This document shows positions 9,602-63,997 of a stretch of 64,000 bases of DNA, in pieces. Under the pieces are notes generated by a model. The model searched no databases. It saw only the letters and a program-made list of their open reading frames with translations, and was not told where the DNA came from. Source of the stretch: a virus. A program made the position numbers and the translations under genes. The DNA is taken from the IMG/VR virus record IMGVR_UViG_3300006735_000018, positions 28,963 to 92,962 of that record; one strand, 5' to 3'. Each line of letters begins with the position of its first letter. Position 1 is the first letter of the stretch.

Positions 9602-9811
9602 TTATCTATTAACTCTTTGAAACATTCCTTCTAGGATTTCTTCTATTGCTGATATAACAGCGTACTCGTCATTACCCCAGTTGGACTTATGACGTTCAAT
9701 AAGTCTTTCAACTATATATTTAACGTCTTTATCTAATAATTCCCATTTTCTATCATCCTGGGGTTGCCAGTATGACTCCTCTCTTAATATTTTTTTAATT
9801 AGTTTGTCCAT
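9602..9811 (-). CDS. Small hypothetical protein with a MDKLIKKILREE leader
   Basis: The ORF track gives 9602..9829. The ATG at 9811 lies just downstream of a TATTTAT motif (9819-9825) and is the more likely start. Confidence 0.6.
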   Translation of the reverse strand: MDKLIKKILREESYWQPQDDRKWELLDKDVKYIVERLIERHKSNWGNDEYAVISAIEEILEGMFQRVNR

Positions 9812-10034
9812 TATTATTATAAATATCACATCTAAGTTCTTTATTTAACTTAAGGTGTGGTGGCCAAAAAGGACAGTGTCTACAACCACTACCACAACAA
9901 CTTCCTCTTCTTTTATGATACTCTTCTGTCATTACCATAACACCTCCTTCCCAATAAAAATCTTTAGGTTGTAATTTAGGTTTTAAAAATTCCTTATAGT
10001 GTAACTCACTAATCCAATCGTCATTCCTTTTCAT
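9795..10034 (-). CDS. DUF5522-like Cys-rich small protein
   Basis: FYWEGG.MVMTEEYHKRRGSCCGSGCRHCPF matches the DUF5522 pattern as I recall it. Confidence 0.75.
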   Translation of the reverse strand: MKRNDDWISELHYKEFLKPKLQPKDFYWEGGVMVMTEEYHKRRGSCCGSGCRHCPFWPPHLKLNKELRCDIYNNNGQTN

Positions 10035-10197
10035 TTTTCACTTCTTTTACTTCTTCTTTATGCCCACAACTAGGACAAGTTATTTTATTTTTTAATATGT
10101 CATTAGAAAACAAATGGTAGTCAGCAATTGACCACCATTTATTACACTTACCACAATTAAAGTGGTATAATATTTCTTTACTAAATTTGTGTTTCAC
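10021..10197 (-). CDS. Small zinc-ribbon protein (58 aa, missed by ORF track)
   Basis: GTG start overlapping the nrdJ end: MKHKFSKEILYHFNCGKCNKWWSIADYHLFSNDILKNKITCPSCGHKEEVKEVKNEKE*. Two CxxC pairs; it fills the gap between nrdJ and the DUF5522-like gene. Confidence 0.75.
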   Translation of the reverse strand: MKHKFSKEILYHFNCGKCNKWWSIADYHLFSNDILKNKITCPSCGHKEEVKEVKNEKE

Positions 10198-12100
10198 TTA
10201 GTTCTGTTTCTTTTTCGTTTTTTTCTAAAGATTTTAAATCAACGTCAATTTCACATTGGCCACCTGAACAAGCTAGTTCACCAGATAAATCTGTATTATC
10301 ATCTAACTCAACAACTTTAGTTAAATCTACATTAGTTAATGATTTCATCATTTCATTATATTTTTCTTTAGTAATATCTTCAAATGGTGCTTGAGTATAT
10401 GTTCCTCCATTATATGGTAAAACAGAAAGACCATTATAATATTTTCTATTTTCCCACATCCATTCACCAGCTGAATCCCATTCGTTTTCTCTTAATGAAA
10501 TAGTTGCTGATACATTGTGTGAGTTTGAACCTTTTCTGTGTCCACTTCTAACCCACTCTGTAGCAATTTTTTTAACTCTCTCTAACAAATCAAAAGGAGA
10601 TTCTGTTCTCATAATTGCACCTTCTGGGGCTTTTTGTGGGACAGATATTACTGCGGTATCATGTGGTCTAAAATATTCATCTTCAACCAGTTCTGGGTGG
10701 TTTAATTTTAAGTAAGTGTAAATAGCTTCATTCTTGCCAACTCTAACTCTTCTAATATAATAATCATTATGCCAAGCATGGATACCTGATGATGTACCTA
10801 AAGTTAAAGAGGTTGTTCCTGCGGGTTTAACAGTTGTTGTTCTAGCTGCTGGATTTATACCTAATAATTTAGAAACTCTAGTATTTTCTCTTTTTACTAA
10901 ACTTGCAGCTTTTTTAGTGTCATAATTAAGTACCTTACCAGAACCAATACCTGTCATCGACACACCTATAAGAGCATCTTTTTCAGTGGTTTCTCTCCAA
11001 ACATCTCTTAGATAGTGGAATGCTGTATACCCAGCTTGAAGTGTTCCGATAAATGCAGCTACTTTAACTCTTTCGTTTAAATCTTCTTGAGATTCTATAT
11101 TTGAAACATTTACCTCACACAAGTTACAGAATTGGTACGGTCTTAAAGCTATTTCACAACATGGATTAGTTCCCCAATCTTTATCATTATTTAGATAGAT
11201 TCCTGGTTCACCAGAATTAGATAACTCAACTCTTTTCCATAAGTCCATAAAAAATTCTTTAGTAATTTTATGTCTCATTAATACAGCGGAGTTGTTAGCT
11301 CTACCTCTTTGGGGGTTTAGTTCCCACCAATTACCAGCTTTACAACCAATCATAAGGTCATCATCAGCTGAAAATAAACTAATTAAAGCTGCACGTCTAA
11401 TACCACCCGCTAATACAGCATCTGCTATATAACATACAATATCATGGACTTCTATAGTTGTAAGTTGGTCTCCGTTTTCTTTACCAGATAATATACCTTC
11501 AATTTTTACTAAACATTCTTTTAATGGTTGTGGTCCTGGGGCTTTACCTCCTGATGTTATTAATCTTGCACCTTTTGCTCTAATATCAGAATAATCAAAT
11601 TCTATTCTTGAACCCCCACCATTCATATATGATTTCATAAGAACTTTAATAGAATCTGCCCAACCTTCAATAGAATCTCCAATTAAAAATCTTCGTTTTC
11701 TTTTTGGATATGGCTTTTGTATAACTGGTAATTTAGCAACGTGATGTTTTTGTACAGAGTATCCTACACCTGTTCCACCTAATAATAAGAACATACACTC
11801 ACTAAAACTATCGATATGGTCAATAGGCATATAAGCACAATTGTATATTCTATTAGGAGATATCTCAATTGGTTTTCCACCAAATTGCATTGACCTCATT
11901 GATGGTAATACTTTTTTATTGTACACAAATTTATACTTATCCTCTATTTCATCTTTTAGATGTGGATATTTTTTAATGTGCATATTTTTATTCCTAGTAA
12001 CTAACTCTTCCCAAGTTTCTCGTCTCTCTAGTTCTGGTAGATATTTTGCGTACTTCATGTAGACAGTAATATCAGATAAAATTTTGTTTGAAATTTCCAT
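10181..12100 (-). CDS. nrdJ: Class II (adenosylcobalamin-dependent) ribonucleotide reductase
   Basis: RETWEE, LPSMRSMQFGG, NCAY, GGTGVG, GTNPCCEI (catalytic NPCxE), CNLCE, TTVKPAGT and the C-terminal redox pair ACSGGQC. Confidence 0.93.
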   Translation of the reverse strand: MEISNKILSDITVYMKYAKYLPELERRETWEELVTRNKNMHIKKYPHLKDEIEDKYKFVYNKKVLPSMRSMQFGGKPIEISPNRIYNCAYMPIDHIDSFSECMFLLLGGTGVGYSVQKHHVAKLPVIQKPYPKRKRRFLIGDSIEGWADSIKVLMKSYMNGGGSRIEFDYSDIRAKGARLITSGGKAPGPQPLKECLVKIEGILSGKENGDQLTTIEVHDIVCYIADAVLAGGIRRAALISLFSADDDLMIGCKAGNWWELNPQRGRANNSAVLMRHKITKEFFMDLWKRVELSNSGEPGIYLNNDKDWGTNPCCEIALRPYQFCNLCEVNVSNIESQEDLNERVKVAAFIGTLQAGYTAFHYLRDVWRETTEKDALIGVSMTGIGSGKVLNYDTKKAASLVKRENTRVSKLLGINPAARTTTVKPAGTTSLTLGTSSGIHAWHNDYYIRRVRVGKNEAIYTYLKLNHPELVEDEYFRPHDTAVISVPQKAPEGAIMRTESPFDLLERVKKIATEWVRSGHRKGSNSHNVSATISLRENEWDSAGEWMWENRKYYNGLSVLPYNGGTYTQAPFEDITKEKYNEMMKSLTNVDLTKVVELDDNTDLSGELACSGGQCEIDVDLKSLEKNEKETELSETQI

Positions 12101-12116
12101 ATTTTTTATTTTTATT

Positions 12117-13490
12117 TTATTTATTTAGTAGTTTTTCTCTTCTTTCTAGAGCGTCCATAACTCTTTTTCGATTTCTTTGTGTTTTGTCCTCTTCAAAACC
12201 TAAGAATGTTTGTGTAGATTCGGTATTAATTTCCAATGTAGCATTGTCAAATGTACAGTTTTCAAATATAATACCATCTTGACCTAATCTAGACTTAGTT
12301 ATAGCGATAGTAGCTAAACCAAGTTCTTTTTGTTGTAATGTTTTTGCCACTGAAATTATGACATGTCCAACTTGAGCTTTCTTTATAGACCCACCCATTT
12401 GGTCTGTAGTAACCACTTCTGAAGAAATAGAAGACCTATTACCTTGTGCTGCTGTCCAACCAACTAGATTTAACTCATGACACATAGCTTCATATTTTCT
12501 CATAACAGAACCTTCACCTTTCCATTCATCATTAAAACTTCTATCTGGGATTACACAATCTATGTAATCTAAAACTACAATATCTAAATTTACACCCTCT
12601 GAAGTTATTTTTCTAATTTGATTTTTTATTTGTGCGATAGTAAACTCGTCTGAAGCTAACTTTTTTAATATTAGTTTACCTCCATTTTTTTTCATCTCAT
12701 CAGCCTTAGAGAGTACTTTTTCTTTATTTTCACTAAGTTTTTGTGGTTCTATACCAGTCCAACAAGTAAAGTGCTTTCTTTGTATAATTTTAGGGTTGTC
12801 TTCAAAAAATATTTGTAAGACATTATATCCCATATTAAAAGCGGTATTAGCGAATCTTGTTAGTATTGTAGTTTTACCCACACCTGTTGGTGCTAATATA
12901 ACACCTAACTCACCTTTTGCTAGTCCACCATTCAATAAATTGTCGATGCCGTCTATGCCAGTAGGGATTGGGTGTCTATAATCATCTTTTAAAACATCTT
13001 CTAGATTTTGAAATACTTCTACCGTTCCTTCGTCACCCTCACCAATACTAATAGCTTCTCTTATATATTCCTCACACTTATCATAACTTTCAAATTCACC
13101 TTTTTCTAGTATAGTTTCTACTTTTCTAATAGCTTTTTTTAACTCTTGTTGTTTACAAAATTTTATAGTTTTTTCCTTTATAAATAAGTGGTCTTCAAAA
13201 GAAGCTTCCTTTACGTCCCTTAACATATCAATAACACATTTTTTAGCCATTTCAGAAGAAATTTCTAATTGTGTTAATTGTTCTATACCTTCAAAAGATG
13301 GAATACTCTGGTACTTTTCGTAATACTCTTTCATCATTTGCATAATTAATTTAAAGTATTGGTTATCAAAATATTTTGATTGTATACTATCAATTATAGA
13401 TTGTGCAAATAATTTATCTGTTATAATTAGATTTAATATTTTTAGTTGGAAGTTATATCCTAGGTATCCAAAATTCTCGGTGTTTGTCAT
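12117..13490 (-). CDS. dnaB: Replicative DNA helicase (DnaB / T4 gp41-like)
   Basis: IPTGIDGIDNLLNGG, Walker A APTGVGKTT, Walker B LDYID, WTAAQGNR and KSRLG. Confidence 0.92.
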   Translation of the reverse strand: MTNTENFGYLGYNFQLKILNLIITDKLFAQSIIDSIQSKYFDNQYFKLIMQMMKEYYEKYQSIPSFEGIEQLTQLEISSEMAKKCVIDMLRDVKEASFEDHLFIKEKTIKFCKQQELKKAIRKVETILEKGEFESYDKCEEYIREAISIGEGDEGTVEVFQNLEDVLKDDYRHPIPTGIDGIDNLLNGGLAKGELGVILAPTGVGKTTILTRFANTAFNMGYNVLQIFFEDNPKIIQRKHFTCWTGIEPQKLSENKEKVLSKADEMKKNGGKLILKKLASDEFTIAQIKNQIRKITSEGVNLDIVVLDYIDCVIPDRSFNDEWKGEGSVMRKYEAMCHELNLVGWTAAQGNRSSISSEVVTTDQMGGSIKKAQVGHVIISVAKTLQQKELGLATIAITKSRLGQDGIIFENCTFDNATLEINTESTQTFLGFEEDKTQRNRKRVMDALERREKLLNK

Positions 13491-14967: not shown

Positions 14968-14991
14968 TTTTTTATAATTAAAGGTTAAACA

Positions 14992-16423: not shown

Positions 16424-16434
16424 TTATATATTTT

Positions 16435-17301: not shown

Positions 17302-17338
17302 AATTTATATTTTTTTTTAATAATTAATTTCTTTAATA

Positions 17339-17367
17339 AAGGTAACTAACTTATTCCGGGTTGTCAA
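17339..17367 (-). promoter_or_regulatory. Host sigma70-type promoter for the SSB-recA-PPIase-exonuclease-helicase-nrdJ operon
   Basis: Minus strand TTGACA-17 nt-TACCTT, located just after a terminator and about 40 nt before the SSB start. Confidence 0.7.
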
Positions 17368-17391
17368 TTATATGGGTATAAATAATTCCAT

Positions 17392-17416
17392 AAAAAAAGC
17401 CCTTTGTTAGGGCTTT
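17392..17416 (-). terminator. Rho-independent terminator
   Basis: AAAGCCCT/AGGGCTTT stem with a T-run on the minus strand, downstream of 17443..18198. Confidence 0.75.
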
Positions 17417-17442
17417 AAATATATACTATTTTTTTTATAGGG

Positions 17443-18198
17443 TCAAACGTTAAAACTTTTTTGTATCTCTGTTTCAGAATAATTATCAACGTCTTCAGGT
17501 GTTAATATGTATTCTTCTTTACCTTGTTCTTTATATTTGTCTTGGTTATCATTCCAAAAATCAGATAGTGATTGGTCAAAAGGTCCAGAATCCTGTTTTC
17601 TTAAATCTAACTTTTCTTCTTCACTTTTTGGTCTATACTTTTCTATTTTTTGTTCTAGACTACTAATTTGATTCATTAGTTGGTCCATTCCTGTTAATTT
17701 TTCTTCCATACCATCTAACATAGACATTAAGGATTCTAACTTATCATTAGTTTCTGATGTATTTTTTTCCAAAGTTTCTTGATTACTAACTAAATCAGTA
17801 ACCTCAACTTCTGTAGTATTTTCATCTTCTTTTTCTGGAGCTCCTGGTATTGCTGGTGGAGGTGTAGTTGGTAGTGTAGTTGGTGCTGCTGGTGGAGTAG
17901 GTGGTGCTGCTGGAATATTCTCGTCTGTTGGGGCGTCACCTGTTTCCATCTCAACTTCAGCGTCACCTAAACCTAATTCATCAAAACTAGTAGTATCTTC
18001 ATCATCTTCAGTTTCAACATCAGCTTCAACATCTTCCTGTTCACCTAATTCTGTTTTACCTAATATTCTTTCAACATGACTTCCCATACCTAAATTACCA
18101 AAACCACCCAAGTTTTGTTCACTAAGATTTTGAGAATTATAACCAATTTGATTAAATCTTTTTAACTCATTTAATAATTTTTTTTCTAAATTATCCAT
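17443..18198 (-). CDS. Acidic coiled-coil protein with a Pro-rich linker (possible head internal or scaffold-like protein)
   Basis: 251 aa; LLNELKRF leader, LSEQ and LGEQ sites, PAAPPTPP linker, heptad-like region. Confidence 0.6.
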   Translation of the reverse strand: MDNLEKKLLNELKRFNQIGYNSQNLSEQNLGGFGNLGMGSHVERILGKTELGEQEDVEADVETEDDEDTTSFDELGLGDAEVEMETGDAPTDENIPAAPPTPPAAPTTLPTTPPPAIPGAPEKEDENTTEVEVTDLVSNQETLEKNTSETNDKLESLMSMLDGMEEKLTGMDQLMNQISSLEQKIEKYRPKSEEEKLDLRKQDSGPFDQSLSDFWNDNQDKYKEQGKEEYILTPEDVDNYSETEIQKSFNV

Positions 18199-33114: not shown

Positions 33115-33975
33115 TTAATCATCTATTTTAGATACTATAATTTTGTTTTTTTCTCCTTTTGAGGTATCATATATAAAAAAGTTTACTCCAGGATATTCTA
33201 TTTGTAATTCTTTATCAATAAAATCAATAATAGCTTCTATATTTCTTCTATCGTCATCACTAAAACCAATACTTAATCTATCATATTCACCATTAGTTAG
33301 TTTTTTAACACCTTCTACTACTTTTTTAACATAATCTCTTAAAGCTATTTTTTTACCTTCTTCTGGTCTGTCAGCGTCAGAATCTAAACCAAATTTATCT
33401 TTAAATTCTGTGGATGTTACGGGAGAATAATCATTTTGTGATAAATAAAAATCTATTTTTTCTTCCATATTCATGTCTTGTGTTGATGGGTATGTTTTTT
33501 CTATGTTTTCTAACATAAATTTTACTTCTTTTGGTTCAAATGTCATTCCAATTAATAACCTAACCCCCTCTTTAATTGCATGTGGTGGTGTACCTCTAGC
33601 TGTTATTATTGAAAATGGATTAGCGTAAATTAACGACTCTTTAAATTTTTCAAAACTAGGGGCAAACTTTTTATCCTCTATTGCCTTTTTAACATCTGTT
33701 ATAAATGTTTGTGGCTCTGCAAAATCCATAAAAGAATAATCCGTCAATCTATAGTCTGAATCATCACGAACTATAGCAAAATCTTCAGTACTAACATTTA
33801 CCGGTACCCAGTCAAAACCATCTTTTTTTTCCATCTTAATTTCTGTAGGCATATAAAGGATATTATCGTCCCAATCAAAAGAGTATCCTCTTATTTTATC
33901 GGTTGTTATTACCTCACCAATCTCACTTACAAGTTTTGTAAATTGTTTTTCTGTTATTATTAGGTTTTTAGACAT
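33115..33975 (-). CDS. HAD-superfamily phosphatase-like protein with an N-terminal leader
   Basis: HAD motif I FDWDDNI, motif II ITARG, a Lys in EGKK and motif IV GFSDDD; N-terminus MSKNLIITEKQFTKLVSE. Confidence 0.7.
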   Translation of the reverse strand: MSKNLIITEKQFTKLVSEIGEVITTDKIRGYSFDWDDNILYMPTEIKMEKKDGFDWVPVNVSTEDFAIVRDDSDYRLTDYSFMDFAEPQTFITDVKKAIEDKKFAPSFEKFKESLIYANPFSIITARGTPPHAIKEGVRLLIGMTFEPKEVKFMLENIEKTYPSTQDMNMEEKIDFYLSQNDYSPVTSTEFKDKFGLDSDADRPEEGKKIALRDYVKKVVEGVKKLTNGEYDRLSIGFSDDDRRNIEAIIDFIDKELQIEYPGVNFFIYDTSKGEKNKIIVSKIDD

Positions 33976-34057: not shown

Positions 34058-34816
34058 TTAACCTTTAATTGGATTATATGCCGTCCCCGCTTTATTGACT
34101 CTATTAAACCATTTTTTCATGCCTCTAATCTCTGATTCTGAAATAGGGTTTGTAGTTTTCAATTTTCTACCTTCGTAAGTTACATTGCCTTGTGTTGGTG
34201 GCGTTGGTTTTCCCTTACAAGGTACTTCTGGACAAGATTTAGGACATTTTTTTCCAGGTACAAGACTGTATGGTTTTTGGCCTCTACATTTACAACACTT
34301 TTTCTTAGCAGATGATGTTGTTGGGTCTTCTGGGTCAAATCCATGTCCGTCAGTACTGCTTCCACGTCCACTTTTTGTAGCTTGTTCCCCCATTTCTATT
34401 GCATTTGTTACAAGTTCATCAGGGTTTAAAGACGAACACCCTTGTGGTGTCATTATTTGCCCAGGAGGACACGGAGCTTTTTGGCCAGTCAATGGTTTTG
34501 GTCTTGCTGGTGGAGTTTCACCAAATCCTTTAGGTTTTTCACCCATCTTACCCCTAGGTGTTGGGTCAGTTGGTGTTGGTTTAAGTGATGAAGGTTTTTT
34601 TCCCATTCTACCACCGATACCACTAGGGGTTGGGTTAGTAGGTGTTGGTTTATATATACTAGGTTTTTCGTCTCTTTTTTCGTTTATAAGTTTAATTAAC
34701 CTTTGTAATTGTTCTTCACTAACTACCACTTTTTGTTTTTTACCTTTAGTGTAAGTTTTTTTATTAGTTTTTGGTAAACCTACCTCCTCTGAAAGTAATC
34801 TTTTTTTAAATTTCAT
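34058..34816 (-). CDS. Pro/Lys-rich hypothetical protein with Cys clusters
   Basis: 252 aa; KVVVSEEQLQRLIKLINE motif, duplicated KPTPT.PTP.G, and CCKC...C...C...C. Confidence 0.65.
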   Translation of the reverse strand: MKFKKRLLSEEVGLPKTNKKTYTKGKKQKVVVSEEQLQRLIKLINEKRDEKPSIYKPTPTNPTPSGIGGRMGKKPSSLKPTPTDPTPRGKMGEKPKGFGETPPARPKPLTGQKAPCPPGQIMTPQGCSSLNPDELVTNAIEMGEQATKSGRGSSTDGHGFDPEDPTTSSAKKKCCKCRGQKPYSLVPGKKCPKSCPEVPCKGKPTPPTQGNVTYEGRKLKTTNPISESEIRGMKKWFNRVNKAGTAYNPIKG

Positions 34817-42667: not shown

Positions 42668-44311
42668 ATGAGTCTTATCCGAGAAGAAATAAATAGAGTT
42701 AGAGAAATAATGGGTTTACCTGTAATTAAAGAACAGGTAGAAATACCAGCTGACACTTCTCGTAATATGAAAAATAATGTCTATAAAGATTTCTGGAATA
42801 AATATGATACTATGACTTATTGTAATTTTTTAGAGTACTGGAAAAATAAATACAATGAAGAGTACAGTGAAAACAATGGTGGTAGTTATGAACAATCTGT
42901 TAAAGACGCTTTTGAAAAACATAAAACTTCAAAATTACCACTAAGACTCCTTAATACTTTTGCTTGGATAGAAAATCGTGGTCGTGAAAAAGGCGATAAC
43001 GGTCAAGGTTGTTGGGGATTATTTCAATATTGTAGACCTTATTGGTCGGATTATGGTATAACTAGTCAAGAGGATGCTGAAAATGCAGATATCGCTACAA
43101 GACAATTTGTAAAACACGCTACAAGTTTAGGTAATAGTTTTTCTAGTAGTATTGGGGTGGATGTTTTTACTCCAGAAAATCAGTGGTTATTATATCTTGT
43201 ATGGCAACAAGGTTCTGGTGGTATTAGAAGAATTTATAATAATTGTGAAGATACAGAAACATTTAAAGGTGATAAAATATTTGTAAAACCAGAACTGAAA
43301 ACCATAGGACCTAAAACAGTAGGAGATATTGAAATGGGCAAAGATACATTACAAAGAGGTGATAGTGGTGATTTAGTTAAATATGTACAACTTATGTTAG
43401 TTAACGACTATAGTATCGATTTAGGTGAAAGTGGTCCTATGAATGATGGTATAGATGGTAAGTTTTTAGATATTATGGAAGATGGTGTAAAAGAATTCCA
43501 AGAAAGATTTAATTTAGTGGTAGATGGTGTTGTAGGTAGGTGTACATTAGAAACTATAGTTAAGGGTAGAACCCCTAGATGTTGTAGAAAAAATGCTTGT
43601 AAAAAAGATAATTGTAAAGATTCTGTTTGGTGTAGTAAAATTAAAAAGGATAAAGAAAAAATAACTAAAAATAAGAAGAAGGACGACAAAGAGGTAAATG
43701 TGAATAATGTAACACCTGGTAATAAACTACCTGGTAACTTTGCTGAAATACCTGGTGGACAAGGAAACTTTAGATGTGAACAACCTACCCTTAAAGAGTT
43801 GGCCAAAGTATTTGAGGATTACCCCGATATAGAAAGGGTTGTTAGGATGAATAACGAAGAGGGGACCGGTGTTGAAAAACATGATGAAAAAGCATATGTA
43901 GAATCTACAGGTAGAGAATATATATGGTTTAATGCTCATGACCCTTATCGTGGTGGAAGAAACTATGAAACTGGTTACACCGGAGCTGTAGAAAAGGGAT
44001 TAAACGAACTTAATAAAGGTAACACTTTAATTCATTGTACACATGGTGCTGATAGAACTGGTTTTGTTGTAGCTGCCTACATTAAAGAAAGACTGGGTTG
44101 GTCTAATGAAAAGTTATGGGACTATACCACTCAATTTAATGGTTGGGATGGTGGTTATGATGGTTGTTGTGCTAATGCAAAATATAGGAGTAAATTAATT
44201 TGTAACGCTACTAATTTTGTTTACTACCTATCTTCCTTTTATCCTATAAAAGAGTGGTGTGAAGCTAAAGAAGCCAGAATGGATTGTAAAGTTTGTAAAA
44301 AATATAAATAA
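42668..44311 (+). CDS. Multidomain protein: lysozyme/transglycosylase-like, peptidoglycan-binding and CX5R protein-tyrosine/dual-specificity phosphatase
   Basis: FAWIENRG...GCWGLFQY (SLT-like); LQRGDSGDLVKYVQ...DGKF...VKEFQ...LVVDGVVG (PG_binding_1); IHCTHGADRTG (PTP P-loop). Confidence 0.78.
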   Translation: MSLIREEINRVREIMGLPVIKEQVEIPADTSRNMKNNVYKDFWNKYDTMTYCNFLEYWKNKYNEEYSENNGGSYEQSVKDAFEKHKTSKLPLRLLNTFAWIENRGREKGDNGQGCWGLFQYCRPYWSDYGITSQEDAENADIATRQFVKHATSLGNSFSSSIGVDVFTPENQWLLYLVWQQGSGGIRRIYNNCEDTETFKGDKIFVKPELKTIGPKTVGDIEMGKDTLQRGDSGDLVKYVQLMLVNDYSIDLGESGPMNDGIDGKFLDIMEDGVKEFQERFNLVVDGVVGRCTLETIVKGRTPRCCRKNACKKDNCKDSVWCSKIKKDKEKITKNKKKDDKEVNVNNVTPGNKLPGNFAEIPGGQGNFRCEQPTLKELAKVFEDYPDIERVVRMNNEEGTGVEKHDEKAYVESTGREYIWFNAHDPYRGGRNYETGYTGAVEKGLNELNKGNTLIHCTHGADRTGFVVAAYIKERLGWSNEKLWDYTTQFNGWDGGYDGCCANAKYRSKLICNATNFVYYLSSFYPIKEWCEAKEARMDCKVCKKYK

Positions 44312-44781
44312 TGAATGACTTTGAAAGACTTATAGACGATTTGGACCCCGTAAAAGGTGGTCCCCTAACAACACTGACTAACCCAGAGAGACACGACGTG
44401 GCGAGGTTTATAGAGCAGCTTAGGTTGTGGGGTAAATATAATATGGTAATGACAGATTTAAGTCCGTTTCTAACTGATGCTAAATCTGTTATAGAAGGAG
44501 AACTCGCTCAAGAGATACTATTATATGCAAAAGAAACAGAAGAATTTCCGGTTAATATGTCAGAATTTATGGAAAATCAACCAGAATCATTACGATATAT
44601 TTGGGAAAACTCTCAAAAAATGAGAGATTTAATGACTAGAGCTACATTAAGATTTATGGAGTCACAAAATTTAGGTATGGACGATAAAAATATTAATGAT
44701 GTTTTTAAAATGTTATCTAGAAAAATTTATCAAAGTATTTTAAGAGGACCCTTTTTAAGTAGAATCCAATCAAAAAGCTAA
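44311..44781 (+). CDS. Hypothetical protein
   Basis: 156 aa, coupled to the upstream gene. Confidence 0.6.
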   Translation: MNDFERLIDDLDPVKGGPLTTLTNPERHDVARFIEQLRLWGKYNMVMTDLSPFLTDAKSVIEGELAQEILLYAKETEEFPVNMSEFMENQPESLRYIWENSQKMRDLMTRATLRFMESQNLGMDDKNINDVFKMLSRKIYQSILRGPFLSRIQSKS

Positions 44782-45834
44782 AGATGGGAATGTGTTTCTA
44801 GAAATTTCTGGAAAATTATCAACCACATTAGTTTTTAACCAAGGACCCCAATTATCATAAATGTTTTCACTCCAACTCCAAAAATTCTTATAACTAATAG
44901 GTCCACTAATAGGTTTTGCTTGTTCTGGTTTAAAAGGTGTATTATTTTTCATAGACTCATATAAATTATTACTAGAACTATAAAGTAACATCATTAGTGG
45001 TAAATTTAACCCGTCCATTTCCATTTTACTCATTAATGTGCCAGTTTCTAATGAAAGTGGTACTAAATAAGACATGGTTTGTGGTTTTATCTTAAACTGA
45101 TTTAATTTTTGTTTTACGTTTTGTGGTTGTAAATCTAATTGTTTTACTAACTTATCTTCTATAATTTTTATAAGTTTATTAGATTGTATTTTTTTTATAT
45201 CACCTATTTTATCGTCACTATCAAACTTAGTTTTCATATTAATTTCTGGTACTGAATCCCCTTCTGTACTTTGTGAACTTTGTGTAGTTTGTGTAGTTTG
45301 TGTGTCTTGTGTTGTTTGTGGTTGTGATGTTTGTCTAGGTTCCGAAGTTGTATCTATAGGTTCTACCGTTGTTACTGTTGGTCTTGTTATTGGCCTTCTT
45401 CTAACTTCACCACTACATGGTGAATTACTTATACAGTCTCTTTGTGTGTTATAATAAGGAAATCCATAAAACAATGTTCTTTGTATACCAGCATCATCTC
45501 TAATTTGTTGACATCTTGGGAAATTTACGGGGTCTTTACATATCCATTTACCCATAAGTTCTCTTCTTTCTTGTTCTCTTTCCCTATCTTCTAAGTCTTC
45601 TCGTTCCCTTTCTTGTCTTTCTCTATCGTCTATTCTTTCTTCTTCTCTTTCCCTATCCTCCCTTTCTCTATCTTCTCTTTCACGTTCCCTATCCTCAATT
45701 TCTCTATCTTCTGGTTCTCTACTAGGGGTTTCCCTGTCTACTTCAACGTCACGTCTAAGGTCCATATCTTCAACGTCCTCTTTATCCCTAACCTGTTCTA
45801 ATATAACTTTATGTATGATATTCAATAATTTCAT
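44770..45834 (-). CDS. Hypothetical protein with an R/E/D charged repeat, a Cys mini-domain and a Thr/Gln linker
   Basis: 354 aa; leader MKLLNIIHKVILEQ, EDREREE repeats, C..C..C..C module and QTT repeats. Confidence 0.65.
   Translation of the reverse strand: MKLLNIIHKVILEQVRDKEDVEDMDLRRDVEVDRETPSREPEDREIEDREREREDREREDREREEERIDDRERQEREREDLEDREREQERRELMGKWICKDPVNFPRCQQIRDDAGIQRTLFYGFPYYNTQRDCISNSPCSGEVRRRPITRPTVTTVEPIDTTSEPRQTSQPQTTQDTQTTQTTQSSQSTEGDSVPEINMKTKFDSDDKIGDIKKIQSNKLIKIIEDKLVKQLDLQPQNVKQKLNQFKIKPQTMSYLVPLSLETGTLMSKMEMDGLNLPLMMLLYSSSNNLYESMKNNTPFKPEQAKPISGPISYKNFWSWSENIYDNWGPWLKTNVVDNFPEISRNTFPSLAF
45560..45745 (-). repeat. Low-complexity (EDRER)n charged repeat in the coding sequence
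   Basis: Imperfect tandem E-D-R-E-R repeats; pyrimidine-rich on the + strand. Confidence 0.7.
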
Positions 45835-45861
45835 ATAATATAAATACCTAGATTAATTGTA

Positions 45862-45891
45862 TAAAAAAACCCTGACCGTCGTCAGGGTTTT
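45862..45891 (-). terminator. Rho-independent terminator
   Basis: AAAACCCTGAC/GTCAGGGTTTT stem with a 4-nt loop and a T-run on the minus strand, downstream of the OMP gene. Confidence 0.8.
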
Positions 45892-45996
45892 CGCAACTCT
45901 TAGTAATTTAAAATCCGTAATTAGTTTCCATTTTTTGGTTGCGGGAAAAAACTTTCACTAATTTGCAACCGTTCTAAATTACCTAACCTGTCTTTT

Positions 45997-46431
45997 TTAG
46001 AATCTATATGATAAACCAAGATTGAAAGTGCCCTCTCTTTCTCCGTTCTCATCTTCTTTTAATCCCATACTGTAATTTGGTTCAACGTATAAACCATTCC
46101 ACACATTGTATGAATAACCTAAACCTAGCGTTAAGTTGTCCATCATTTCTTCTGTTGGAGCTTGAACTGATACATACACGTTTGCGTTCCAGTTGTATCT
46201 CCCCCAAAGGTCGTAAGACTTGTCACCTAATGAATCTTCTCCAGCTGTTACTAAACCAACAGTCCAAGTATCGTTTAATTTATAACCAATACCCATGTTG
46301 TCAGTTAAGTTAGACATTTCGAATGATTCACCATCTTCTGGTGAACTGTAAGTTGTTACTACCATGAAATTCTGTGCTGATGCAAATAATGTTGAAAGTG
46401 CTACAGCGGATGTTAAAATCAATTTTTTCAT
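45997..46431 (-). CDS. Small outer-membrane beta-barrel protein
   Basis: Sec signal peptide (MKKLIL...ASA|Q), amphipathic beta-strands (MGIGYKL, LGLGYSY, YVEPNYS) and a C-terminal BAM signal LGLSYRF. Confidence 0.8.
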   Translation of the reverse strand: MKKLILTSAVALSTLFASAQNFMVVTTYSSPEDGESFEMSNLTDNMGIGYKLNDTWTVGLVTAGEDSLGDKSYDLWGRYNWNANVYVSVQAPTEEMMDNLTLGLGYSYNVWNGLYVEPNYSMGLKEDENGEREGTFNLGLSYRF

Positions 46432-46512
46432 TTTTTCTATTTAACTTTTTTTTATATTCTTTTTTATATTATTTCTCTTTTTAAAGATGGTGCGAATAAC
46501 CATCTTTTAGTT

Positions 46513-46737
46513 TTACTTCTTAACGAAGAATGACGTTAAAAGTACTAACACGATTAAACCTACGAAACCTCCTTCACCAAGTGAAGTGATAAGAGCAGAA
46601 AGATTTGCTACTACATCCATTCCGAAAACTGAACCACCTGTTAAGACGTACCACAAGATTGATACTGGAACTACAGCCATTAAAACTGAACCTAGTCCTC
46701 CAAAAAATCCTGTAATCATTTTCATTACGTTATCCAT
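46513..46737 (-). CDS. Small integral membrane protein
   Basis: 74 aa, almost entirely hydrophobic with 2-3 predicted TM helices, Gly-rich; co-oriented with the OMP gene. Confidence 0.72.
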   Translation of the reverse strand: MDNVMKMITGFFGGLGSVLMAVVPVSILWYVLTGGSVFGMDVVANLSALITSLGEGGFVGLIVLVLLTSFFVKK

Positions 46738-47020
46738 AATTAATTTTTTTTAAAGTTTATGATTACACCAAATTACGGTGTATTCGTTATGATAAATACC
46801 ACTAAATTTAGTCAAAATAACCAAAATTTACAATTATCTTTGTAGTTAAAAACCCTAAAAATGAAAAAATCACCTATATTAAACACCATACACAACAAAA
46901 ATTTAGCCGCTATTTTTTTAAAAAAAATTGTAATAATTTTAAAATTTAACTAAAAATTAACCACTTTTTACTAATGGATATTACTAATTTCATGTATATT
47001 TATAATAAAAAGTATAAGTT

Positions 47021-47830
47021 ATGAATAGAAGAAAAGATGTTAAACTCTTAGAAAACGTAATCCGTAAAATGGTTTCTGAATCAAAAGCGGGTGATATTAA
47101 ACAAGAAGTACAAGCAGCTTATGACGCTGTTAAGGCTGTAAAAAATAAACTTAAGGGTATGGGTAAAACCAACAAAGACTTAAAGGTAATGAAAGCCGCT
47201 GCAAGAAAAATGGTTGATGAGTTAGAGGATTTGGAGGATTTAGACATGGAAGAGGAAATGACTGAAATGGATGATGAGACTGTTAAAAGGAATGAACAAT
47301 CTGAAGGTTATGGTACTTTTAAAGGTTTAGGTATGAATGAGAATAAAGTTATAAAGTTGTCTGAAAACGATTTAAACGTTCTTTTAAAGAATGTTGTAGC
47401 TAAAAAAAAAGATAAGTTAAGGGAAAACTTATTAAGAGACGTTAAAAACACTTATAGTTTAATAAGAGACAGAATTGTTATAGAAGGGGTACAAAACCTA
47501 AGAATCCCTAATTACACCCAATTAATTAACGAACAATCAGAATGGAGTGGTGGTCGTAATCCTGGTGCTTCAGCCGCTGATGGTATAGAGAATATATTAG
47601 ATAACCTAAAGAAAGCGTGGAGTATGATTAAAGATTCCACAACTAGAAAACAAATATCCAATACTTTAACTAAATTAAATAATTTTGCAACCTATACAGC
47701 TGAATTAATAGGTTCAGGACAAAGTCAATCAGCCCCTAGAAGTTACGAGCAATTAGCTGACCCATTACCTTACCCTGAATTAGACGAACCTGAAGATTTA
47801 GAAGATATTGACGATGAAATTTCTATGTAG
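47021..47830 (+). CDS. Acidic helical hypothetical protein (possible head internal protein)
   Basis: 269 aa with multiple I/L-x-E sites and an internal KVIKLSENDLNVLLKNVV motif; preceded by TATTTAT at 46997-47003. Confidence 0.65.
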   Translation: MNRRKDVKLLENVIRKMVSESKAGDIKQEVQAAYDAVKAVKNKLKGMGKTNKDLKVMKAAARKMVDELEDLEDLDMEEEMTEMDDETVKRNEQSEGYGTFKGLGMNENKVIKLSENDLNVLLKNVVAKKKDKLRENLLRDVKNTYSLIRDRIVIEGVQNLRIPNYTQLINEQSEWSGGRNPGASAADGIENILDNLKKAWSMIKDSTTRKQISNTLTKLNNFATYTAELIGSGQSQSAPRSYEQLADPLPYPELDEPEDLEDIDDEISM

Positions 47831-47835
47831 AATAT

Positions 47836-47862
47836 AAAAAGAGTCCTCTAGGACTCTTTTTT
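47836..47862. terminator. Bidirectional Rho-independent terminator
   Basis: AAAAAGAGTCC-TCTA-GGACTCTTTTT between convergent genes. Confidence 0.85.
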
Positions 47863-48094
47863 ATTTAATTATCTTACCACCGTTACCTAAAATTAATACT
47901 ACAATAAGTGGACATAATAATGGTGATTTTAAAAAATGTGTAAAAATATAGAAATTATACCAACCATTAGACGGGTTTCCATTACGTTTTTTTTCAAAAT
48001 TTAAATAATTTTCCTGAAGTTGTTTTTTATTAAGTTCAACAAAAGGTACCATTACTATTAATGAAAAAAGAATATATCCTAGTATGTATGTCAT
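47861..48094 (-). CDS. Small two-TM membrane protein
   Basis: 77 aa with hydrophobic N- and C-terminal segments; upstream TATATTTG motif at 48124-48131. Confidence 0.6.
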   Translation of the reverse strand: MTYILGYILFSLIVMVPFVELNKKQLQENYLNFEKKRNGNPSNGWYNFYIFTHFLKSPLLCPLIVVLILGNGGKIIK

Positions 48095-48258
48095 GTTATT
48101 AGTATTTTAAGGTTTTTACTATACAAATATACGAAAAAAAAATATAATTAGTTACAATATATCGCACAAAAAAGAGCCATATAGACTCTTTTTTAATTTT
48201 ACCGCACTATAAAATCCCCAAGGTTTGAGGATTTTAAATTTTTATGATGTTTTTAAAA

Positions 48259-48591
48259 TTATCTTCTTCTAATCTTTCTCATTCTTTTGTAACCTTCTTT
48301 CATCATCTCTACACCCATATCCATGTCCATTTTACCTCCACCTGCAGGAGTCATATCACTTGACATAGGACCCGATGGTGCCATAACCTTGTCGTCTTGT
48401 ACTAATGGTTTACAACATGAACAGTCTGATGATTGGTCTTGAAAATCTATAGTACCATAACAACCTTCGTCGTCACCACACTCACACCACCATTCTACAT
48501 CCTTTTCTACCAATAAAGGTTTTTTTGATTCCTTAATAACTCTAGCAATGATTGATTGTAGATTTTTTTCAGTTAGTCTAATTTTTTTCAT
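48259..48591 (-). CDS. Small protein with an N-terminal leader and a Cys-rich core
   Basis: MKKIRLTEKNLQSIIARVIKES followed by WWCECG...GC...DCSCC. Confidence 0.7.
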   Translation of the reverse strand: MKKIRLTEKNLQSIIARVIKESKKPLLVEKDVEWWCECGDDEGCYGTIDFQDQSSDCSCCKPLVQDDKVMAPSGPMSSDMTPAGGGKMDMDMGVEMMKEGYKRMRKIRRR

Positions 48592-59930: not shown

Positions 59931-60326
59931 ATGAAACTTTACAATGTCATATCAAACCTTATACTTGAGCAAGCATCTCAATCAGAAATTATAGATGCTA
60001 TAAAAAATAAACATGTCTGTGAATTAGAGTATGAGGATGATATGAGTATAGGTCCAGGTAAACGAGTAATACAACCTGTAGCTTTTGGTGAATCTTTAAG
60101 AAATAATAAAGTTATTAGAGCTTATCAAACATCAGGACCATCATTAAAAGTAAATGAAGAGGGTATTCCTCTACCAGATTGGAGATTATTTAGATTAGAT
60201 AGGATAAGTAATTTTAAACCAATTAAAGGTGAGGATTCTGTTTTTGAGACTTTTACTGAACCACCTATGTATAATCCGTTTGGTGATAAATCTATGAACA
60301 GACTTTTAGTTAATTCAAAATTTTAA
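59931..60326 (+). CDS. Stand-alone WYL-domain protein
   Basis: DAIKNKHVCELEY...GKRVIQPVAFG...IRAYQ...WRLFRLDRI. Confidence 0.78.
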   Translation: MKLYNVISNLILEQASQSEIIDAIKNKHVCELEYEDDMSIGPGKRVIQPVAFGESLRNNKVIRAYQTSGPSLKVNEEGIPLPDWRLFRLDRISNFKPIKGEDSVFETFTEPPMYNPFGDKSMNRLLVNSKF

Positions 60327-60330: not shown

Positions 60331-60936
60331 ATGAGTGGATTCGAAGCTTTACAACAAAAACTTATTCAAGCAAAAGCTGTGATGAATAAAGTAGATGGGA
60401 TGCCGTCTAAAATGAATGGTACACAACAAACAATGACAGAGTCATCTAATCCTAATTTACCACCTGTTTCTAATAATTTTAATGCTGAAAGTATTAATAA
60501 TGTTATTAGTTCTAATAGTGGTTTACAAAAACCAGTAATTACAGAAGAAAAGGTAAAAAACTCAAAGTTACCTGATGCGATAAAAAAACTTATGATTGAC
60601 CACCCAATTCCTGAAGTAAGTTTTGGTAATAATATACCGGATTCATTAATTGAGGGTGCTGCTGAAAAAATGAAAAAATTATCAGGTTTGGGCACTTCTG
60701 AACCATCTTTTAGTACAAATAAAAAACAAACCTCAAAACCTAAAACACAAAAACTAACTCAAAGTTCACTTAAAAACTTAGTTAAAGAAACTATTAAGGA
60801 ATCTTTAGATGAGTTAATCGAAGAAAGAATAACAAAAAGAATTGTAGAAAGTAATAATCTAAACGAGTCTATTCGGTTAGTTGTTGGTAATACCGTTTTT
60901 GAAGGTAAGATATTAACTACTAAAAAAATTAACTAG
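60331..60936 (+). CDS. Hypothetical protein
   Basis: 201 aa; SKLPDAIKKLMIDHPI and a C-terminal VGNTVFEGKI. Confidence 0.6.
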   Translation: MSGFEALQQKLIQAKAVMNKVDGMPSKMNGTQQTMTESSNPNLPPVSNNFNAESINNVISSNSGLQKPVITEEKVKNSKLPDAIKKLMIDHPIPEVSFGNNIPDSLIEGAAEKMKKLSGLGTSEPSFSTNKKQTSKPKTQKLTQSSLKNLVKETIKESLDELIEERITKRIVESNNLNESIRLVVGNTVFEGKILTTKKIN

Positions 60937-62404: not shown

Positions 62405-62408
62405 AAAT

Positions 62409-62639: not shown

Positions 62640-62671
62640 ATTAGAGTATATTTATAATAAAAACAATTATT

Positions 62672-62962
62672 ATGAATTTCTTTAAAAACATGTTAAGTAG
62701 TGAAGGTAAAGTCTCTAGTAAGAGATTTGTTACTTTCGTATGTCTTCTATTTATGTTAATAGGATACACAGCTAATCTATTCTGGGATTTTACTATCGAG
62801 GAAAATTTATTTCAATCACTACAGTGGATTGTAATGGCTGGTCTTGGTTTTACAGCTGCAGAGAATTTTTCACCTAAAGGTGAGGAGGTTGTAGAAGAAG
62901 AACCAGAACCAACTAGAACAACTGTGACTCACGAATATTATGATGATGAAGAAGACTACTAA
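62672..62962 (+). CDS. Two-TM membrane protein (possible holin-like)
   Basis: SSKRF followed by two hydrophobic helices and an acidic C-terminal tail; TATTTAT upstream at 62649-62655. Confidence 0.55.
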   Translation: MNFFKNMLSSEGKVSSKRFVTFVCLLFMLIGYTANLFWDFTIEENLFQSLQWIVMAGLGFTAAENFSPKGEEVVEEEPEPTRTTVTHEYYDDEEDY

Positions 62963-62967
62963 AAAAC

Positions 62968-62995: not shown

Positions 62996-63013
62996 ATTTA
63001 ATATGGTTTTTGT

Positions 63014-63079
63014 TTAACAGTCACAACACGTACAATCACAACTTGTTTCACATTTACATTTTTCACAATTACATTTCAT
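63014..63079 (-). CDS. Metallothionein-like peptide (21 aa, 9 Cys; missed by ORF track)
   Basis: ATG at 63079: MKCNCEKCKCETSCDCTCCDC*. It has an A-rich leader and lies between the upstream stop (63093) and the terminator. Confidence 0.72.
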   Translation of the reverse strand: MKCNCEKCKCETSCDCTCCDC

Positions 63080-63092
63080 AATATTTACTTTT

Positions 63093-63359
63093 TTAATTTA
63101 CTGAATCACAATAGTATCTAACTAAAGTCATAACATCCCCGTGACATCTTGCACAACTTCTATTACCTACCATTTTTTCTTCTTTATTAATTTCTGGACA
63201 TAATTTATCTAACTCACCTAAAAATTCATTATCTGTCATTGATTGTTTAATTTTACCAGCAATATTTCCTGGAATCATATTTGGCCCGGTAAGTATCTGT
63301 TCTTTTACTATTTTTTCTATAGTATTTATCAATTCTGATTCTTTTAATTTAATATTCAC
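63093..63359 (-). CDS. Small protein with a leader and a CxxCH motif
   Basis: MNIKLKESELINTIEKIVKEQ...LC...SCARCH...YC. Confidence 0.65.
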   Translation of the reverse strand: MNIKLKESELINTIEKIVKEQILTGPNMIPGNIAGKIKQSMTDNEFLGELDKLCPEINKEEKMVGNRSCARCHGDVMTLVRYYCDSVN

Positions 63360-63997
63360 CTTAAATATTTTTTTAAATTTTGTTTTAGTATGTTTTCAAA
63401 TATACCCATACCGTCAGCTGTATAATCTGGGTCTGCTGATTGATTCGATATGTTTACATTATATGTAGTTCCAGTAGTATCGTCTTCATCTAACTCATCT
63501 TCCCCCAAATCATACTTATCAGTTGGTTTTGCGATACCTAAACCCATACCTTGATTATTACCGAACCCTAACATCATTTGTTCTTTTACAATTTTTTCTA
63601 TTGTATCTATTAATACTGACTCCCTAACTTGGATTATGTCCGTTTCTTCTTCCCACCAATCAACTGGAGAACCCTTTCTATATGAAAAGTCATAATCATC
63701 ATCTTCCCACCTATCAACTGGGGAACTCTTTCTATCACCTGACCACTCTAAACACCTATTAACACCCGGTTTGTAACCATGGTTTTGATTTCCGTTGTGT
63801 CTTATACAACGATTATTACCACCGTCATATATACTATCTTCTGGTTCAGTATCTAAACATTCATTATATGACATACATCCAGGTGTACCACTATGTGAAC
63901 CGTCTCTTGCCATTCTACAAGCAGTTCTACCACTTCTTCCTCTATTCCAACACTCAAACCTTTCATTAATTATACTTTCACTTATTGACTTATCCAT
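63356..63997 (-). CDS. Hypothetical protein with Cys mini-domains (possibly 5'-truncated by the window edge)
   Basis: The frame is open to the window end. It contains a C..C..C..C module and an internal IIQVRESVLIDTIEKIVKEQ. Confidence 0.6.
   Translation of the reverse strand: MDKSISESIINERFECWNRGRSGRTACRMARDGSHSGTPGCMSYNECLDTEPEDSIYDGGNNRCIRHNGNQNHGYKPGVNRCLEWSGDRKSSPVDRWEDDDYDFSYRKGSPVDWWEEETDIIQVRESVLIDTIEKIVKEQMMLGFGNNQGMGLGIAKPTDKYDLGEDELDEDDTTGTTYNVNISNQSADPDYTADGMGIFENILKQNLKKYLR

Follow-up and report, generated by a model that had tools for sequence, protein, structure and literature searches.

Short leader peptides recur on otherwise unrelated proteins of an uncultured marine giant phage, and they are real, modular, interchangeable and under selection at the level of the peptide. 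The window, by which we mean the whole 64-kb stretch of DNA analyzed here, comes from a 93-kb IMG/VR contig that covers ~29% of a roughly 300-kb marine T4-related myovirus genome, and it holds 9-10 credible leader genes. The best reading, towards which we lean with some reserve, is that the leaders are T4-type capsid-targeting propeptides; by that analogy, about ten tagged proteins probably enter the capsid and have their leaders cut off, as happens in T4.

The GenBank phage collection yielded no close relative: a nucleotide search returned no match to the window DNA, and the window's polymerase matched only Salinibacter phages there, at ~24% identity. Exact-match scans with the last bases of the window found no overlapping contig in viral_contigs or metagenome_contigs. 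Among the relatives that we compared, G001 has 60 of 73 ORFs in common with the window's contig, at a mean identity of 57%.

Leader classes and the genes that carry them

The initial annotation had described one shared leader. Its 12 quoted peptides all translate as written, at the gene starts it named or inside genes, and the recurrence that it reported stands, but the set comprises three leader classes rather than a single motif. Specifically, class A has the consensus K-h-x-L-T-E-x-x-L-x-x-h-h-x-x-h-h-x-E (h, hydrophobic), class B LIKKILREE / MKLxNxIxxxILEQ, and class C EIxRh+xhhG…E-Q; a short-form leader matches the distal half of class A, and leader length ranges from 13 to 27 residues. 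The carriers are as follows, with bit scores from the leader HMMs treated below.

9602..9811, minus strand: ~69-aa protein, its real start the Met at 9811; class-B leader MDKLIKKILREE, nt 9776-9811 (HMM B, 18.4 bits)
17443..18198, minus strand: very acidic protein, 251 aa; class-C-like leader, residues 1-27, nt 18118-18198
33115..33975, minus strand: HAD-like protein, 286 aa; class-A leader, residues 1-18, nt 33922-33975 (HMM A, 10.6 bits)
34058..34816, minus strand: Cys-containing basic protein, 252 aa; class-A core, residues 29-46, nt 34679-34732 (HMM A, 5.2 bits)
42668..44311, plus strand: peptidoglycan-binding and Cys-phosphatase protein, 547 aa; class-C leader, residues 1-22, nt 42668-42733 (HMM C, 10.6 bits)
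42668..48591, no strand: variable island between helicase and head-tail-adaptor-like gene, with four leader genes
44770..45834, minus strand: acidic repeat protein, 354 aa; short leader, residues 1-13, nt 45796-45834
47021..47830, plus strand: 269-aa protein; internal class-A copy, residues 110-129, nt 47348-47407 (HMM A, 7.4 bits)
48259..48591, minus strand: Cys-rich orphan protein, 110 aa; class-A leader, residues 1-21, nt 48529-48591 (HMM A, 7.8 bits; TATTTAT at -25)
59931..60326, plus strand: WYL-domain protein, 131 aa; short leader, residues 1-13, nt 59931-59969
60331..60936, plus strand: conserved protein, 201 aa, doubtful member; leader-like internal helix, residues 141-158, nt 60751-60804 (HMM A, 6.7 bits)
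63093..63359, minus strand: 88-aa protein with GTG start; class-A leader, residues 1-20, nt 63300-63359 (HMM A, 14.7 bits)
63356..63997, minus strand: 213-aa protein; class-A copy, residues 121-140, nt 63578-63637

The long form, proposed as a leader, is N-terminal in three of its seven copies, but the remaining four are internal (residues 29-46, 110-129, 121-140 and 141-158 of the 34058, 47021, 63356 and 60331 genes, respectively). In the first of these, the core lies within a 46-residue N-terminal module, and the N-terminal 45-66 residues recur on other C-terminal parts in three relatives (L003, L004 and L008). The 269-aa protein has a Met at residue 105, ahead of its copy, and its own N-terminus also resembles a leader, though more weakly; what follows the copy is found at different positions in relatives and, in L008, is fused to the 34058-type leader. 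The 213-aa protein is an in-frame fusion of a Cys-rich N-terminal half to a class-A copy plus a small cargo, with no start codon directly ahead of the copy, and its residues 122-180 correspond in alignment to residues 4-61, at the N-terminus, of 110-132-aa proteins in relatives. The peptide is likewise present in the 60331 gene, but it is doubtful as a member of the long form, being a conserved internal helix of a conserved protein, its position kept in the G001 orthologue and partly in that of a second relative, G003.

The carriers themselves are diverse. The HAD-like gene sits between the tail sheath and tail tube genes, and its product has 826 homologues in which the leader is kept down to 50% identity. 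In its AlphaFold2 (AF2) model, residues 1-27 have a pLDDT of 43-52 and the fold begins at residue 29 with values >80; the leader is thus predicted to be structurally detached from the cargo fold. We write "HAD-like" because the label comes only from DxD, T and DD motifs in invariant columns; Pfam and PHROGs gave no match, and Foldseek found none in the PDB at E<=0.001. An identical HAD-like protein is also encoded on a 247,520-bp contig. The WYL-domain assignment is just over threshold (Pfam WYL, 23.2 bits against a cut-off of 21.8), and the leader of this protein also occurs on its orthologues in G001 and G003. The 547-aa protein matched PG_binding_1 at 35 bits and Y_phosphatase3 at 23 bits, with DSPc under its cut-off, and its residues 183-312 match PHROG endolysin families. 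Most leader proteins had no match in Pfam or PHROGs. For the 110-aa Cys-rich protein and another leader protein, GenBank phages yielded nothing useful, and residues 1-40 of the former, searched against 5.8 billion proteins (60-193 aa), returned the query alone.

Modularity and the boundary at the terminal glutamate

Leader HMMs trained only on G001 and G003 were run on the window's proteins and on three nulls: 20 shuffled proteomes, reversed sequences and spurious ORFs. The window's class-A copies scored 14.7, 10.6, 7.8, 7.4, 6.7 and 5.2 bits against null maxima of 4.7 (shuffled), 3.7 (reversed) and 2.6 (spurious ORFs); class B scored 18.4 bits against at most 8.7 across the nulls. The two class-C scores, 10.6 and 9.8 bits against a null maximum of 5.9, are not equally independent, because the orthologue (G001 88535-89305) of the gene with the lower score, 17443..18198, was in the training set; more generally, the HMM test is not fully independent, since the training rows include orthologues of window genes. 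Chance amphipathic helices in an AT-rich genome are ruled out by these nulls. Further, N-termini in the window genome resemble each other more than mid or C-terminal segments do, with 7 N-terminal pairs scoring >=35 against 0, 0 and 2 for shuffled N-termini, and the motif was missing from replication proteins, as RNR, DnaB, polymerase, helicase, exonuclease and recombinase all scored no higher than the null.

The same pattern extends across 1.35 Mb of relatives, where 174 leader matches fell in 65 families, compared with 0-1 in reversed controls. About 75% of these matches are N-terminal, and leaders stand at the N-terminus of 53 unrelated protein families; at an 8-bit threshold, 86 of 119 class-A matches begin no later than residue 12. 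For those pairs that were compared, what lies behind the leader scores at background. Specifically, the N-termini of the acidic repeat and WYL-domain proteins score 45 against each other and their remainders 29, which is background, while the class-B leader of the 9602 gene recurs on five unrelated G003 genes. Leaders are also swapped on one cargo: HAD-like proteins start with a class-A leader in most relatives and with a class-B leader in L057 and L069.

The modules end at a glutamate. One class-A leader occurs on 49 unrelated database proteins, with near-total identity through L-T-E and none beyond; over these families, positions 1-27 hold 2.5-4.3 bits each, as far as L25-x-E27, position 28 (Q/E/D/N) holds 1.9 bits, and all later positions hold <0.8 bits. 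The search scored residues 1-40, and the sharpness of this boundary follows in part from selection, because matches were picked for leader similarity. As the initial annotation had it, leaders end in a hydrophobic-x-Glu: h-x-E closes the leader in 53 of 53 families, and [LIVMF]-x-E-[QEDNS] does so in 50 of 53, against 154 of 923 control N-termini (17%). The I/L-x-E match alone is weak, because 49% of control N-termini carry [LIVMF]-x-E in these K/E/I/L-rich proteomes. A search of PDB sequences with the class-A profile gave only chance-level matches.

Identical leader residues are often written with different codons (30% to 55%), at a nucleotide identity of only 50-80%, which shows that selection acts on the peptide and rules out recent DNA duplication as the origin of the leaders. 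Within the window, the 63093 leader and the copy in the gene upstream share 14 of 20 residues, 6 of these 14 with different codons, and codons differ at 4 of 9 residues identical between the short leaders of the 44770 and 59931 genes.

Proposed capsid targeting and competing explanations

Were the leaders capsid-targeting propeptides, each would form a short amphipathic helix, preceded in the long form by a strand-like K-h-x-L-T-E piece, and would dock its protein on the scaffold or core of the assembling prohead. After shell closure, a gp21-type (Peptidase_S77) protease would cut after the Glu of the terminal [L/I/V]-x-E, freeing within the head a cargo that would leave together with the DNA at infection. 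We infer prohead-core binding, cleavage, virion residence and injection by analogy with T4, and the "early-effector arsenal" of the initial annotation is likewise conjecture. The sequence-level predictions of capsid targeting that could be tested were borne out (modular, swappable leaders, an h-x-E end, a boundary at Glu, a detached leader, absence from replication proteins and a protease in relatives); position is mixed, about 75% of matches in relatives being N-terminal and four window copies internal. Also in favour of this reading, leader genes lie in structural operons or follow an upstream motif common to structural genes, and they are enriched in the variable part of the genome (counts below).

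A gp21-like protease, which the initial annotation had expected elsewhere in the genome, was found in two relatives but not on the window's own contig. In G001 and G003, PF03420 (Peptidase_S77) scored 88-90 bits, over its cut-off, and the gene order runs portal, two small proteins, protease, acidic scaffold and gp23-like capsid protein. This capsid protein matches T4 gp23, and I-K-E44, L-Y-E51 and I-N-E60, the last followed by Q, precede its conserved core. Neither protease nor head module was found on the 93-kb contig (~29% complete), nor was Peptidase_S77 found in eight other fragments searched, five further relatives' fragments among them. Class-A leaders are absent from the nearest isolates; Flavobacterium phage immuto and Microcystis phage Mel-JY01, which share the protease and whose heads are related, lack them, and therefore the protease does not imply these leaders. 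Leader-bearing cargoes that would attack the cell wall include a Peptidase_M23 protein in G001 and the peptidoglycan-binding protein in the window, and such cargoes suit ejected proteins because T7 gp16, a capsid-internal protein, is ejected with a lytic transglycosylase domain.

Among competing explanations, the one that survives best, though we consider it unlikely, is that the leader is an uncleaved docking or oligomerization helix for a hub other than the prohead, such as a chaperone, a tail/baseplate assembly factor, or a replication or lysis complex. The internal copies, one of which is a conserved internal helix, would suit such a role, as would the location of many leader genes in tail gene clusters between sheath and tube, and not only near head genes. 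Such a helix would not account for three different leader sequences that share the same terminal h-x-E-[QE], for similarity that stops exactly at the terminal Glu and gives way to a variable, often low-complexity linker, or for a T4-type protease of that specificity class in relatives.

It is very unlikely that the leaders are membrane-seeking helices that bring their proteins to the host inner membrane. They are amphipathic, two window leaders have net charges of +4 and +8, and cell-wall enzymes are among the cargoes; most window leaders, however, have a net charge of 0 to +1, carriers include acidic soluble proteins, a WYL protein and a HAD-like enzyme, and membrane binding would explain neither the invariant Glu at the end nor the sharp module boundary at that residue.

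Less probable again is that the shared 5' ends arose incidentally, through recombination at mobile regulatory cassettes made up of a promoter and the start of a gene, the peptide itself being functionless. Modular shuffling of this kind is known in T4-type genomes, and leader genes are enriched in variable regions: 9 of 13 lack a full homologue in G001, compared with 11 of 60 other genes (Fisher p = 6e-4), the 44770 gene has no homologue there at all, and no ORF of the 42668..48591 island has a full-length one, a single 202-aa G001 gene occupying its place. TATTTAT, noted earlier ahead of several leader genes, indeed occurs <=60 nt upstream in 6 of 13 leader genes and in 20 of 73 genes genome-wide (~1.4 expected). 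The sharp boundary could, moreover, be a recombination joint. Against this stand the differing codons and low nucleotide identity, the peptide's retention in homologues at 50% identity, internal copies without promoter context, and the convergence of three distinct classes on one ending.

Least probable is a RiPP-like role, in which a modifying enzyme would recognize its substrates by the leader. A single leader spread over many unrelated proteins does fit a one-maturase, many-substrate pattern, but no conserved enzyme gene was seen beside leader genes, and a radical-SAM recognition tag was rejected after Radical_SAM (PF04055) gave no match in five related fragments (~630 kb), all 14 control genomes having matched.

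Capsid targeting can also be extended to a wider reading, possible but doubtful, in which uncultured giant marine phages related to T4, forming a cosmopolitan clade, would use an interchangeable capsid-loading code of at least three classes to direct 7-20% of their proteome to the head and deliver it along with the DNA, with dozens to hundreds of fast-changing cargo families that include cell-wall hydrolases, phosphatases and WYL-type proteins. In this reading, the classes might differ in the partner on which they dock in the prohead core or in the number of copies that they bring there. Such a set of effectors carried in the virion would match in scale the effector repertoires of bacterial secretion systems. 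Should the leaders indeed bring cargo into the head, the proteins that a whole group of abundant, uncultured ocean phages injects could be picked out by one simple sequence rule. Hundreds of unknown proteins would then become candidates for acting in the opening minutes of infection, for example in counter-defence, in breaching the wall or in taking over the host.

Comparison with known loading systems

Encapsulin cargo-loading peptides show that a short portable peptide can direct diverse enzymes into an HK97-fold shell. The likeness is an analogy only, as their peptide is C-terminal and uncleaved, and the shell is a cellular nanocompartment.

Closer in kind are phiKZ, 201phi2-1 and SPN3US, also giant phages with many cleaved head proteins, in which gp21-related proteases remove long propeptides from head and ejection proteins, cutting after Glu at what can be several sites per propeptide; in SPN3US, the diverged paralogues gp53 and gp54 have identical N-termini (PMC5694885, PMC9026906). 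Their propeptides are mostly >100 residues, compared with 13-27 here, and form no portable tag across unrelated families. Further, their P3 residue is small (S/A/G-x-E), whereas here it is L/I/V/F/M in 53 of 53 families, a uniformity that arises because the site was so defined.

The closest parallel is T4 itself, where a stretch of ten residues at the N-terminus of IPIII is enough for packaging, with residues 4 and 7 involved in targeting, residues 8 and 10 in processing, and cleavage after Glu (PMC9026906, PMC3012670, PMC5694885). Like the T4 capsid-targeting sequence (IPI, IPII, IPIII and Alt; removed by gp21), the leaders are short N-terminal peptides common to unrelated proteins and end in hydrophobic-x-Glu; relatives encode a protease of the gp21 family and a capsid protein of the gp23 family, their head genes follow the order seen in T4, and cargo genes vary between related phages. 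In contrast, T4 has one class of ~10 residues on a handful of proteins, whereas here three classes of 13-27 residues, without sequence similarity to the T4 sequence, occupy ~7-20% of ORFs in dozens of families. T4 cleavage sites have small residues at P1', unlike the predominant Q/E/D found here. To our knowledge, T4 capsid-targeting sequences are strictly N-terminal, whereas some copies here, where the system is known from sequence alone, are internal. Were the proposed function true, a targeting principle that serves three or four proteins in T4 would be seen at work in a large, modular, multi-class system, and the leaders could provide new portable tags for the packaging of foreign proteins in phage heads.

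Leader classes and the contig that carries them

The proteins examined here, otherwise unrelated, share short leader peptides that fall into three classes. All twelve of the peptides quoted in the initial annotation are present in the window, and its view that leaders are shared holds, but the single class it described separates into three. Specifically, class A (the long form) reads K-h-x-L-(T/S/K)-E-x-x-L-x-x-h-h-x-x-h-h-x-E, class B (the short form) reads LIKKILREE, with a variant MKL-x-N-x-I-x-x-x-ILEQ, and class C reads E-I-x-R-h-+-x-h-h-G/N … E-Q. A model of the MKL variant also detects class-A leaders over their distal half, which suggests that the short form is a truncated class A. Leader HMMs were trained on two related contigs only and then scored on the window's genome, a test that is not fully independent, as orthologues of window genes make up some of the training rows; class-A scores were 14.7, 10.6, 7.8, 7.4, 6.7, and 5.2 bits, relative to null maxima of 4.7 (shuffled proteomes), 3.7 (reversed sequences), and 2.6 bits (spurious ORFs). 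The class-B (18.4 bits) and class-C (10.6 and 9.8 bits) HMMs likewise exceeded their own nulls, and no replication protein rose above the null, the comparison that the initial annotation had proposed. Leader matches occurred in 14% of the ORFs of the window's genome, and in 7% and 20%, respectively, of those of two large related IMG/VR contigs, G001 and G003. Outside the window, a 640-aa protein (genome bases 124-2046, +) has a class-A-like start and a second copy at residue 421; these copies score 2.1 and 4.1 bits, inside the null range of the relatives-trained model.

At 64 kb, the window spans bases 28,963-92,962 of one IMG/VR viral contig (92,962 bp, topology linear), for which the CheckV completeness of 29% suggests a genome size near 300 kb. 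The window has a GC content of ~32% and the gene set of a contractile-tailed phage, with baseplate wedge proteins, a tail tube, and a baseplate hub, as well as replication genes for ribonucleotide reductase, DnaB helicase, family-B polymerase, an exonuclease, a UvsX-like recombinase, and an ssDNA-binding protein. Two further genes are large, the sheath unusually so:

34826-38935 (-): tail sheath, 1369 aa, only the last ~300 residues of which match sheath families
18488-24808 (-): 2106-aa protein with a C-terminal M23-type metallopeptidase domain and tape-measure-like placement

DNA and protein searches of GenBank returned no close isolate. Of 73 ORFs in the window's genome, 60 are common to G001, at a mean identity of 57%. 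In G001, ~22 kb of sugar-nucleotide and glycosyltransferase-like genes (27353-49623, loci L084-L085) lie amid structural genes, and nothing similar was seen at the corresponding place in the window's genome.

Modularity of leaders and cargoes

We fetched 80 related IMG/VR loci and read G001 (156 kb) and G003 (127 kb) in full. Across 1.35 Mb of this material (1250 ORFs), we found 174 leader matches, spread over 65 families with no relationship to one another past the leader, with 0-1 matches in reversed controls; about three-quarters of the matches begin within the first 12 residues. Further, when the first 40 residues of a single G003 class-A leader were queried against 5.8 billion proteins, 278 were retrieved; behind the leader, the best 120 of these form 51 clusters. 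When one representative per family was aligned in the same register (49 sequences), all positions through L25-x-E27 were nearly invariant, position 28 was Q, E, D, or N, and information fell below 0.8 bits from position 29 onward, although residues 1-40 had been scored; conservation before the Glu arises partly by construction, because matches were picked for leader similarity, but its abrupt end does not.

Leaders are also exchanged. The family of the HAD-like protein carries class A in most relatives and class B in two loci (L057 and L069), while the N-terminal 45-66 residues of the product of 34058-34816 reappear on other C-terminal parts in relatives, including one locus (L008) in which this type of N-terminus is fused to a C-terminal domain that the window has in 47021-47830. 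Between leader pairs, different codons encode 30-55% of identical residues, which argues for selection on the peptide rather than a recently copied DNA segment and contradicts an origin of the leaders as a recombination by-product. Farther afield, the uncultured phage LR756508 (484 kb) has two N-terminal leader copies and one internal copy, and immuto and Mel-JY01, the nearest isolates with related heads, have no class-A leader. On visual inspection, a long ORF at LR756508.1 ~143.9-146.9 kb (L102) seems to have an intein-like insert with motifs of the homing-endonuclease type; a class-A-like leader copy comes ~500 codons into the frame.

A widespread cargo is the following:

33115-33975 (-): HAD-like protein, 286 aa, class-A leader

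Marine metagenomes contain 826 homologues of it, including some on 250-290 kb contigs, and an identical protein is encoded on a 247,520-bp assembly. The leader is kept in homologues as distant as 50% identity, but the segment of 7-12 residues from the leader Glu to the first conserved strand varies freely. In an AlphaFold2 model built from 64 aligned sequences (mean pLDDT 80.8), residues 1-27 have a pLDDT of 43-52 with a lone helix at 9-19, and the confident fold starts at residue 29; as modeled, the leader is an appendage outside the domain. Foldseek gave no PDB match at E<=0.001 and only faint MDP-1-type HAD matches. The cargoes that can be named are this HAD-like enzyme (by motifs only), a WYL-domain protein, a peptidoglycan-binding and Cys-phosphatase protein, and a Peptidase_M23 protein of G001.

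Genomic setting of the leader genes

Leader genes sit within structural operons: 34058-34816 and the gene for the HAD-like protein lie between sheath and tube, and G003 has six leader genes around the tube gene and five immediately upstream of the portal and terminase. Leader genes are overrepresented in the genome's variable part: a full-length G001 homologue is missing for 9 of 13 leader genes versus 11 of 60 other genes (p = 6e-4). Two such features are:

42668-48591: variable island with four leader genes
44770-45834 (-): 354-aa orphan, a short leader followed by long, very acidic E/D/R repeats, with no homologue in G001

The TATTTAT motif noted earlier before several leader genes does occur within 60 nt upstream of 6 of the 13. 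On the coding strand it precedes 20 of 73 genes within that distance, versus ~1.4 expected by chance; these are mostly structural (sheath, tube, baseplate) and leader genes, and also DnaB (12117-13490). The (A)TATTTAT(A) element lies mostly 11-26 nt, and up to 42 nt, upstream of the gene start (for example, -23 of 26208-29213, -22 of 29256-31436, -42 of 34826-38935, and -25 of 48717-49871), and is probably a promoter element.

Head module, candidate cleavage, and comparison with T4

The gp21-like protease proposed to remove the leaders was found in relatives, with Peptidase_S77 matches in G001 and G003 (88 and 90 bits; cut-off 27), and gave no match on the window's own 29%-complete contig or on eight other related fragments, each only 11-39% complete. 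Both relatives show the order portal, two small proteins, protease, very acidic scaffold-like protein, and major capsid protein, which is also annotated in Flavobacterium phage immuto and matches the T4 order, 20-67-68-21-22-23; in G001, 14274-15017, 15059-15496, and 16395-17987 encode the two small proteins and the scaffold-like protein. Among the matches of the relatives' capsid protein are the structures of T4 gp23 and gp24, together with thousands of T4-like phages. The stretch that precedes its conserved core contains I-K-E44, L-Y-E51, and I-N-E60 then Q in G001, and V-K-E, L-Y-E, and L-T-E then A in G003, the alignment to T4 being weak across these candidate cut sites. In the window, a 96-aa protein (62672-62962, +) shares its first 40 residues, without a difference, with the product of a G001 gene (19921-20211) directly 3' of the major capsid gene, while the window counterpart follows a glycosyltransferase cluster, suggesting that the head module is placed differently or lies just past the contig end.

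Each of the 53 families whose leader is N-terminal shows [LIVMF]-x-E with Glu at residues 10-34, in itself weak evidence, because 49% of control N-termini have one; [LIVMF]-x-E-[QEDNS] occurs in 50 of 53 leader families versus 154 of 923 control proteins. The stronger point in favor of a putative cut site is that three different leader sequences share one ending, at which homology stops.

Three of the seven long-form copies described initially are indeed N-terminal, and four are internal. The copy in 63356-63997, together with the part behind it, aligns to the N-terminal ends of relatives' proteins of 110-132 aa, which indicates that this gene joins a Cys-rich piece, in frame, to an otherwise ordinary leader-plus-cargo unit. 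The internal copy of 47021-47830 comes immediately after a Met (residue 105). In 60331-60936, where the protein as a whole is conserved, the copy is a conserved helix in its interior, which makes its membership doubtful. Under the protease model, proteins with internal copies would be cut into two pieces. The main rival, in which the leader is a docking helix for another hub and is not cleaved, accommodates internal copies, as such a helix would function at any position. A membrane-seeking helix agrees with the amphipathic character of the leaders but not with their terminal Glu, which is invariant, or with the low net charge found in most of those in the window. For a radical-SAM recognition tag there is no support, as none of five related fragments has a Radical_SAM match.

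We consider capsid targeting the best reading, at slightly better than an even chance, and we infer every mechanistic step beyond the sequences themselves. The initial observation stands with corrections, and its capsid-targeting interpretation is partly supported. In T4, the first ten residues of IPIII are enough for packaging, with residues 4 and 7 serving targeting, 8 and 10 serving processing, and cleavage coming after Glu; the targeting sequence is all that the varied internal proteins have in common (PMC9026906, PMC3012670, PMC5694885). We found no published description of such leaders in uncultured T4-related phages in the open-access literature. Judged from their sequences, the leaders would resemble the T4 system in working, whereas they do not resemble the T4 tag in sequence, are longer, come in several classes, occur on far more families, and are partly internal.
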